Below are positions 58,307 to 58,479 of a DNA stretch of 64,000 nucleotides, piece after piece; position 1 is the stretch's first letter; every line of letters begins with the position of its first letter. A model generated the notes under the pieces. It saw only the letters and a program-made list of their open reading frames with translations. It was not told the origin of the DNA and did not search any database. Source of the DNA: Escherichia coli (GTDB lineage Bacteria > Pseudomonadota > Gammaproteobacteria > Enterobacterales > Enterobacteriaceae); NCBI RefSeq assembly GCF_003334355.1, contig NZ_QOWP01000002.1, one strand, 5' to 3'. The position numbers were made by a program, and so were the translations under genes.

Positions 58307-58342
58307 TTTAAACATGTGTTCATATTTAAACATGTGCTCATA
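58307..58342. promoter_or_regulatory. Perfect tandem direct repeat (2 x 18 bp) upstream of psuK; candidate operator
   Basis: tttaaacatgtgttcata immediately followed by tttaaacatgtgctcata; 68-103 bp upstream of the psuK start. Confidence 0.5.
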
Positions 58343-58479
58343 GTATGCATGTTTTACGTAAAGTAAATTACCGCCAGAGAGGCTAAATGGGCAGATTTGA
58401 GCAGGCTCACAAAATGCGATTAAATGCCTGAATTACAAAAGCGAGGAATTTGTGACGGGATGCACAGAACAGGAACAAT

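Follow-up and report, generated by a model that had tools for sequence, protein, structure and literature searches.

Paired dyads at the psuK promoter of Escherichia coli as candidate operators of the kinase-like protein YeiI

An 18-bp tandem direct repeat stands upstream of the pseudouridine kinase gene psuK in a 64,000-nt stretch of Escherichia coli DNA (hereafter the window), which raises the question of what this repeat does and which protein would read it. The original prediction took the repeat for the operator of an unknown regulator and placed a CRP-like site near it. As that prediction had it, psuK is the gene downstream of the repeat; it lies on the minus strand, and the upstream gene is fruA, according to both the list of open reading frames and the RefSeq annotation of the matching K-12 region (Table 1). 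The psuK-fruA intergenic region is 423 bp long, is 100% identical to that of several complete genomes and 97.6% identical to that of K-12 W3110. Beyond psuT, the window continues with yeiL (+), rihB, nupX and yeiI (+), and nfo and yeiH precede yeiI. The first 60 nt upstream of psuK (58240-58299) also match, at 100%, the inside of an annotated fruB at a distant coordinate in the E. coli laboratory strain ER1709, which points to a rearrangement in that strain, or to a junction made by engineering.

Table 1. Coordinates of the genes, candidate sites and RNA elements discussed, in window positions
Feature	Position	Strand	Details
yeiI, candidate regulator	50694..51782	+	HTH-PfkB fusion protein
psuK, pseudouridine kinase	57298..58239	-	heads psuK-psuG-psuT; ORF list and RefSeq annotation of the matching K-12 region
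Stem-loop TGGTAA-tttt-TTACCA, psuK 5' leader	58251..58266	-	conserved; in the MFE fold
Operator O2 (candidate), ATGAACACATGTTTAA on psuK strand	58308..58323	-	dyad GAACA-CA-TGTTT; PWM 22.6 bits
Operator O1 (candidate), ATGAGCACATGTTTAA on psuK strand	58326..58341	-	dyad GAGCA-CA-TGTTT; PWM 20.8 bits
-10 hexamer TACTAT (inferred)	58340..58345	-	TACTAT/TATTAT/TATCAT/TACAGT; fixed 16-nt distance to the -35 across genera
-35 hexamer TTTACT (inferred)	58362..58367	-	TTTAC(T/A) invariant in 11 aligned upstream regions
Proximal CRP-like site, TGTGAgcctgcTCAAA on psuK strand	58396..58411	-	1 mismatch to the CRP core
Distal CRP-like site, TGTGAcgggatGCACA (original prediction)	58451..58466	.	centre ~-125.5; 1 mismatch to the CRP core
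Intrinsic terminator ending fru operon transcription	58484..58507	-	9-bp GC-rich stem, then T-run
fruA	58663-60354	-	gene upstream of psuK

The repeat is real and beyond chance. Its two copies, tttaaacatgtgttcata (58307-58324) and tttaaacatgtgctcata (58325-58342), abut directly, and both the coordinates and the adjacency are exactly as predicted, but the repeat is not perfect as had been claimed, since 17 of 18 positions are identical and one base differs (t/c). TRF gives it a score of 65 with 94% matches. No other tandem unit between 16 and 30 nt long in the window has one mismatch or fewer, and 200 sequences simulated from the window with a first-order Markov model yielded no such unit. TRF also reported two further short tandem arrays of similar score, one of 21 nt in 1.9 copies at the psuG/psuK overlap (57263-57302) and one of 26 nt in 1.9 copies at 34885-34935.

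The position of the repeat, right behind the -10 element and over the inferred start, and its deep conservation support its reading as an operator; what is conserved, however, is not the direct repeat. The conserved unit is the dyad GAACA-NN-TGTTY, present in two copies with centres 18 bp apart. Both repeat copies contain the arms GAACA and TGTTY with 2 nt between them: the dyad that we call O1, inside the copy at 58325-58342, has its centre at ~58333.5, or ~+1 of the inferred promoter, and O2, inside the copy at 58307-58324, lies 18 bp downstream at ~+19. O1 is kept in all enterobacterial orthologous regions, and in every enterobacterial locus examined the second dyad is found exactly 18 bp from the first. 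The dyad centre is CA or TG depending on the species, with the arms unchanged. Such a flip amounts to the same site in either orientation, as expected of the DNA site of a two-fold symmetric dimer. Outside the main E. coli haplotype the 18-mers agree at only ~13 of 18 positions, but the dyads and their spacing are retained. In the main haplotype O2 resembles a copy of O1, and the near-perfect direct repeat there would thus be a lineage-specific homogenisation of two older operators. The motif scans covered the 64-kb window and the comparison loci. With a 16-mer PWM, the best score in the rest of the 64 kb is 10.6 bits, which is at the level of shuffle noise and far from the scores of O2 and O1. 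The PWM found no operator-like site in the window upstream of yeiI, nfo, yeiH, rihB, nupX or yeiL. Since yeiI, nfo and yeiH are among these genes, autoregulation of YeiI in E. coli is not supported.

The E. coli region from yeiI to psuK occurs as two deeply diverged haplotypes. The divergent yeiI, ~81% identical at the DNA level, is present in 2,060 genomes, and psuK with its promoter is undetectable by megablast in ~1,200 E. coli genomes, which carry the divergent, albertii-like haplotype. These counts imply recombinants that combine the divergent yeiI with the common psuK promoter. In NCTC9022, the sole divergent-haplotype genome examined, the 18-mers agree at 13 of 18 positions, both dyads and their spacing are intact, and nupX is lost.

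The promoter that the dyads would control can be read from the same comparison. On the psuK strand the sequence runs TTTACT-(16 nt)-TACTAT and then directly into the repeats. An orthologue search yielded no more than 11 loci. Across 11 aligned upstream regions, which cover Escherichia clades including E. albertii, Citrobacter, Buttiauxella and Salmonella, the -35, the -10, O1 and O2 form gap-free blocks, and the sequence between the blocks drifts; this layout of promoter plus two dyads is shared by all four genera. The last two bases of the -10 overlap the O1 16-mer, and O1 and O2 together span ~-8 to +26. From the hexamers we place the psuK start at ~58333; the literature searched gave no transcription start site for psuK. 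With O1 at ~+1 and O2 at ~+19 of this inferred start, the dyads would occupy a repressor position. The core promoter is weak, with TTTACT as its -35. An alternative main promoter, TTTAAA-16-TATATT (58312..58285), was rejected, as it is not conserved outside Escherichia.

A recurrent adaptive mutation bears on this assignment. In three reports, an identical A>C change in the psuK/fruA intergenic region recurs in the mouse gut, in 5 of 7 young mice and also in old mice, in resident strains and upon co-housing (PMC9509342, PMC7518454, PMC10340439), and a fourth report gives the same change in three long-term stationary-phase populations (PMC7858067). The breseq label of this SNP, the same A>C as that at position 2257444, is 'intergenic (-126/+297)'. 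Given that label, and because K-12 and the window align free of indels between psuK and that point, psuK -126 corresponds to window position 58365 (58239+126). On the psuK strand the SNP is T>G at base 3 of the -35, converting TTTACT to TTGACT, and this improvement of the -35 supports our promoter assignment. A weak -35 together with a CRP-like site would also explain why a single -35 up-mutation is so effective an adaptive step. The SNP allele is found in five complete genomes, those of S17-1, ST18, ER1821R, ER2683 and one pigeon isolate.

The CRP-like site proposed originally is real, with one mismatch to TGTGA-N6-TCACA. Within Escherichia it is conserved, but the Citrobacter and Buttiauxella versions are degenerate. 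It lies just inside the fru terminator, 55 bp upstream of a second, proximal site that is better conserved. The proximal site is centred at 58403.5, ~-70.5 from the inferred +1 and 28 bp from the -35. Its TTGTGA is invariant, the distance, counted by eye, stays at 28 bp from E. coli to Citrobacter, and in Buttiauxella and Salmonella the alignment is gap-free from the site to the -35. The window holds 7 matches to the CRP core with one mismatch, compared to 1.6 expected, and 2 of these 7 fall in the 423-bp intergenic region. Measured from the inferred start, ~-70.5 is a class-I-like distance, whereas ~-125.5 is no standard class I position (-61.5, -71.5, -82.5, -92.5). The literature searched contained nothing on CRP action at psuK. 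On these sequence features, CRP-cAMP probably assists the psuK promoter from ~-70.5, and possibly from -125.5 as well. The two sites 55 bp apart recall the CytR/CRP nucleoside promoters. Like deoP2, cdd and nupG of the CytR regulon, psuK belongs to a nucleoside operon and has a weak -35 and two CRP-like sites ~five helical turns apart, but its sites, which are candidates only, are at ~-70.5/-125.5 instead of -40.5/-93.5, and no convincing CytR octamers were found. Between the two CRP-like sites (58412-58450) there is a GCATTT direct repeat (GGCATTTAATCGCATTT), and some Citrobacter and Buttiauxella sequences carry TTGCAAAC at this place.

The fru terminator, conserved in Escherichia and Buttiauxella, forms the upstream limit of the psuK control region. 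In the 5' leader, a conserved stem-loop directly precedes the Shine-Dalgarno GAGGA of psuK, and its stem shows compensatory changes across genera (GGTAA/TTACC, GGCAA/TTGCC and GGCAT/ATGCC), with U-G intermediates in E. albertii and Buttiauxella. If TGGCAAGTTAATTGCC, ahead of the start codon, is taken for a sigma-54 element, its spacing is canonical in three Citrobacter sequences only; because of this spacing and the lack of a -12 GC in E. coli, that reading was dropped and the hairpin preferred. Another hairpin directly follows the fruA stop codon (~58627-58650), and the canonical terminator comes 120 nt further on. Conservation within Escherichia also marks the ~150-nt stretch between the two (58508-58662), a possible 3'UTR-derived RNA; Rfam gave only a sub-threshold DapZ-like match there, on the opposite strand. 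One genome annotates a 48-aa hypothetical ORF (~58424-58570) that partly overlaps this stretch.

Which protein, then, would bind the dyads? The original prediction left the regulator unknown, and gene neighbourhood and domain content narrow it to one candidate, YeiI. The literature searched offered neither a regulator of psuK nor a link between YeiI and psuK. YeiI has an N-terminal winged HTH (Pfam HTH_24, residues 1-48, E = 2.3e-10) followed by a PsuK-like PfkB domain (PF00294, 58-348, E = 9e-67) and shares 39% identity with PsuK. Among solved structures the nearest is that of the E. coli pseudouridine kinase, and none covers the HTH. Papers of 2022 and 2025 call YeiI uncharacterised, in 2025 as an uncharacterised sugar kinase. 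In E. coli, yeiI is ~3.2 kb from psuT, with nupX, rihB and yeiL in between. In Citrobacter and Buttiauxella, nupX-rihB-yeiL is missing and yeiI directly follows psuT in convergent orientation; in Salmonella, yeiI abuts psuT and the four genes yeiI and psuT-psuG-psuK are together in a different neighbourhood. Indeed, in all 11 contexts examined outside Escherichia an HTH-PfkB gene is either adjacent to the psuG operon or first in it (3 with a separate psuK, 8 operon-first), and no other DNA-binding gene is shared by all the loci. In one Salmonella enterica contig (AAOFJQ010000019.1) the module has a RelB/ParE toxin-antitoxin pair and a DDE transposase as neighbours in place of fruA. This arrangement suggests that the four-gene module moves as one unit.

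The association extends to the sites themselves. In 8 distant loci (Yersinia, Xenorhabdus, Pasteurella, Aeromonas, Dongshaea, a Burkholderiaceae MAG, another gammaproteobacterium and the Firmicute Proteiniborus) the HTH-PfkB gene is first in the operon with psuG directly next; these loci have no separate psuK, and a NupC-type transporter is often present. Using a PWM trained on Escherichia, Citrobacter and Buttiauxella sites only, we found that in five of the eight (Yersinia, Pasteurella, Dongshaea, the Burkholderiaceae MAG and the Firmicute) the top-scoring pair with 18-19 bp spacing anywhere in the 11-13 kb locus is located just upstream of the HTH-PfkB gene, 31-39 nt from the gene start, and several of these pairs come directly after a -10-like hexamer. 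Against dinucleotide shuffles of the local 142 nt, each of the five gave p = 0.0005-0.007, and the Fisher combined p over all eight distant loci is 3e-8. The other three, Xenorhabdus, Aeromonas and the further gammaproteobacterium, gave no significant pair with this PWM; Aeromonas has AAACGTTT dyads with a different spacing, 24 bp apart.

The kinase-like domain of YeiI is consistent with a sensor role. The PsuK residues that contact pseudouridine, Ser30, Asn143 and Lys170 (PMC9061257), correspond to Ser83, Asn196 and Lys223 of YeiI, and the contact residues as well as Lys185 and the catalytic Asp256 (PsuK numbering) are invariant in an alignment of 13 sequences. The anion-hole motif splits the same alignment into two clear groups. 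N-x-T/N-G-A/G-G-D, the PsuK type, is carried by each of the eight operon-first proteins, and D-S-F-G-A-D-D, a change of GAGD to GADD, by each of the four YeiI proteins found alongside a separate psuK (E. coli with two alleles, Citrobacter and Salmonella). This split agrees with a gene duplication after which PsuK served as the enzyme and YeiI as a sensor or regulator, and such a history also fits the observation, in the 2025 paper, that YeiI fails to replace PsuK in vivo. Furthermore, pseudouridine closes the PsuK dimer from ~66 to 51 Å, by ~15 Å (PMC9061257), and such a closure might provide a route for allostery in YeiI. At yeiI codon 100 (position 50992) the window has a single base, A in place of C, that sets it apart from the closest complete genome, that of strain 510016, whose psuK-fruA intergenic region is identical. 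The result is A100D. The PfkB motif to which this residue belongs, GGVGRNIA, is nearly invariant, and the allele occurs in none of 5,426 complete E. coli genomes, making it a private missense change in the candidate regulator.

Putting these elements together, we think it reasonably probable that the repeat represents paired operators of YeiI, acting as a pseudouridine-responsive repressor over a weak, probably CRP-assisted psuK promoter. The start site, the binding of YeiI and of CRP, the sign of regulation and the ligand in this model we infer from sequence comparison. A dimeric local regulator, most likely YeiI, would occupy O1 and O2 and block RNA polymerase. Pseudouridine or its 5'-phosphate would bind the kinase-like domain of YeiI and shift the dimer geometry; closure of the dimer would reposition its two N-terminal winged helices, the dimer would leave the DNA, and psuK-psuG-psuT would be induced. 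CRP-cAMP, at ~-70.5 and possibly at -125.5, would assist the weak core promoter. On a broader scale, there is perhaps an even chance that in most bacteria one bifunctional kinase-repressor autoregulates an HTH-psuK/psuG operon through two dyads 18-19 bp apart, that Enterobacteriaceae have split these roles, and that the YeiI family is a widespread class of pseudouridine-sensing transcription factors that arose from the pathway kinase. In Enterobacteriaceae the gene would have duplicated, with PsuK losing the HTH but keeping catalysis, and YeiI keeping the HTH and the ligand pocket while its anion hole degraded from GAGD to GADD, leaving a dedicated sensor that would repress psuKGT in E. coli.

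PsuG and PsuK are strongly inducible proteins, with a log2 fold change of up to -6 in recA mutants under ciprofloxacin. The spacing of a LexA SOS box, CTGT-N8-ACAG, is absent from 58300-58350, and the RecA dependence is therefore probably indirect. In the evolution experiments the target is always the single -35 SNP, other catabolic operons are opened via repressor knock-outs, and the rows listed in the supplements contain no yeiI mutations. This pattern fits a repressor that pseudouridine had already released in those settings, and it also fits YeiI not being a simple repressor.

The dyads could instead be operators of another protein, such as YeiL, DeoR, CytR or an unlinked factor, which we consider unlikely. 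YeiL belongs to the CRP/FNR family, its gene lies in the E. coli locus between rihB and psuT, and the junction between the repeat copies has a 5-N6-5 geometry like that of CRP-family sites. The DeoR operator consensus is a 16-bp palindrome, TGTTAGAA.TTCTAACA, and the junction TGTTCATATTTAAACA matches the DeoR operator TGTTAGAATTCTAACA at 11 of 16 positions, a match that is a lead only. The spacing of the dyads in several taxa is, however, 19 bp, which breaks the junction palindrome and not the single dyads; the palindrome is thus a by-product of the 18-bp spacing, lost in the 19-bp taxa. Moreover, yeiL is missing from most loci examined, and YeiL was rejected as the binding protein since the operators are retained without it in the Citrobacter, Buttiauxella, Salmonella, Yersinia and Pasteurella loci. 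There is no TGCAA-type CytR motif in the repeats, the LexA box does not fit them either, and no DNA-binding gene other than the HTH-PfkB gene accompanies them throughout.

A role at the RNA level, in which the junction of the copies folds into an 11-bp hairpin where the leader begins and affects mRNA stability, translation or Rho access, appears very improbable. In the MFE fold of the inferred leader GUUUAAAUAUG does pair with CAUGUUUAAAC, and the fold has a z-score of -2.43, with 4 of 200 shuffles folding as well. Only the main E. coli haplotype, with its near-identical copies, can form this long stem; no more than ~4 bp of pairing at the junction are left in Citrobacter, Buttiauxella, E. albertii and the NCTC9022 haplotype, yet each DNA dyad is intact. 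The flip of the CA/TG centre suits a DNA-binding dimer and is not RNA covariation, and Rfam found no family at threshold in the intergenic region. More remote still is a neutral product of duplication or slippage, or a variable-number repeat that switches expression. The resemblance of O2 to O1 in the main haplotype includes the flanks (17/18) and suggests a recent conversion or duplication, but a pair of dyads with 18-bp spacing persists across genera and families. When synthetic 1-copy and 3-copy alleles were searched against 4,221 genomes, no single-piece match was obtained, only two-piece alignments to the 2-copy allele, and the top places all span the 2-copy length; over the 91-bp core region every one of these genomes except a single one reaches at least 95% identity. 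Copy number thus does not vary among them, which speaks against a contingency locus.

Paired operators of YeiI, the reading that we prefer, would have precedents in known systems. ROK repressors such as NagC, Mlc and Bacillus subtilis XylR combine an N-terminal winged helix with a sugar-kinase-fold sensor of the pathway substrate; they act locally on catabolic or transport operons through dyad operators overlapping promoters, and HTH-less enzyme paralogues exist. By analogy, YeiI would share this architecture of winged helix and kinase fold, but its sensor is PfkB/ribokinase-like (PF00294) and not the actin-like ROK fold, its predicted ligand is a modified nucleoside, and in most taxa the HTH-bearing protein is apparently the pathway kinase itself. 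In this last respect the closer parallels are BirA and NadR, pathway enzymes with an N-terminal (winged) HTH that control genes of their own pathway: the operon-first HTH-PfkB proteins likewise keep the catalytic GAGD and have psuG directly next. In BirA and NadR the ligand or product is a co-repressor of biosynthesis or salvage genes, whereas here a catabolic operon would presumably be induced, and in E. coli the roles are apparently split between PsuK (no HTH) and YeiI (GADD). At the DNA level, ArgR binds ARG boxes, two near-abutting ~18-bp palindromes over the core promoter, as a cooperative oligomer. O1 and O2 are similar in being paired ~18-bp palindromic boxes at a promoter that an oligomer would bind cooperatively, but ARG boxes are 2-3 bp apart with a period of ~21 bp on the same helix face, compared to 18-19 bp for O1/O2, and the ARG box TGAAT-N4-ATTCA does not match O1 or O2.

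If true, this model would provide a target, a DNA motif and a ligand for YeiI, a still-uncharacterised predicted transcription factor of E. coli K-12, and would define a new family of enzyme-derived transcription factors. A pseudouridine-responsive pair of promoter and regulator would then also be of use for biosensing and in pseudouridine production strains. [quoted passage not shown]
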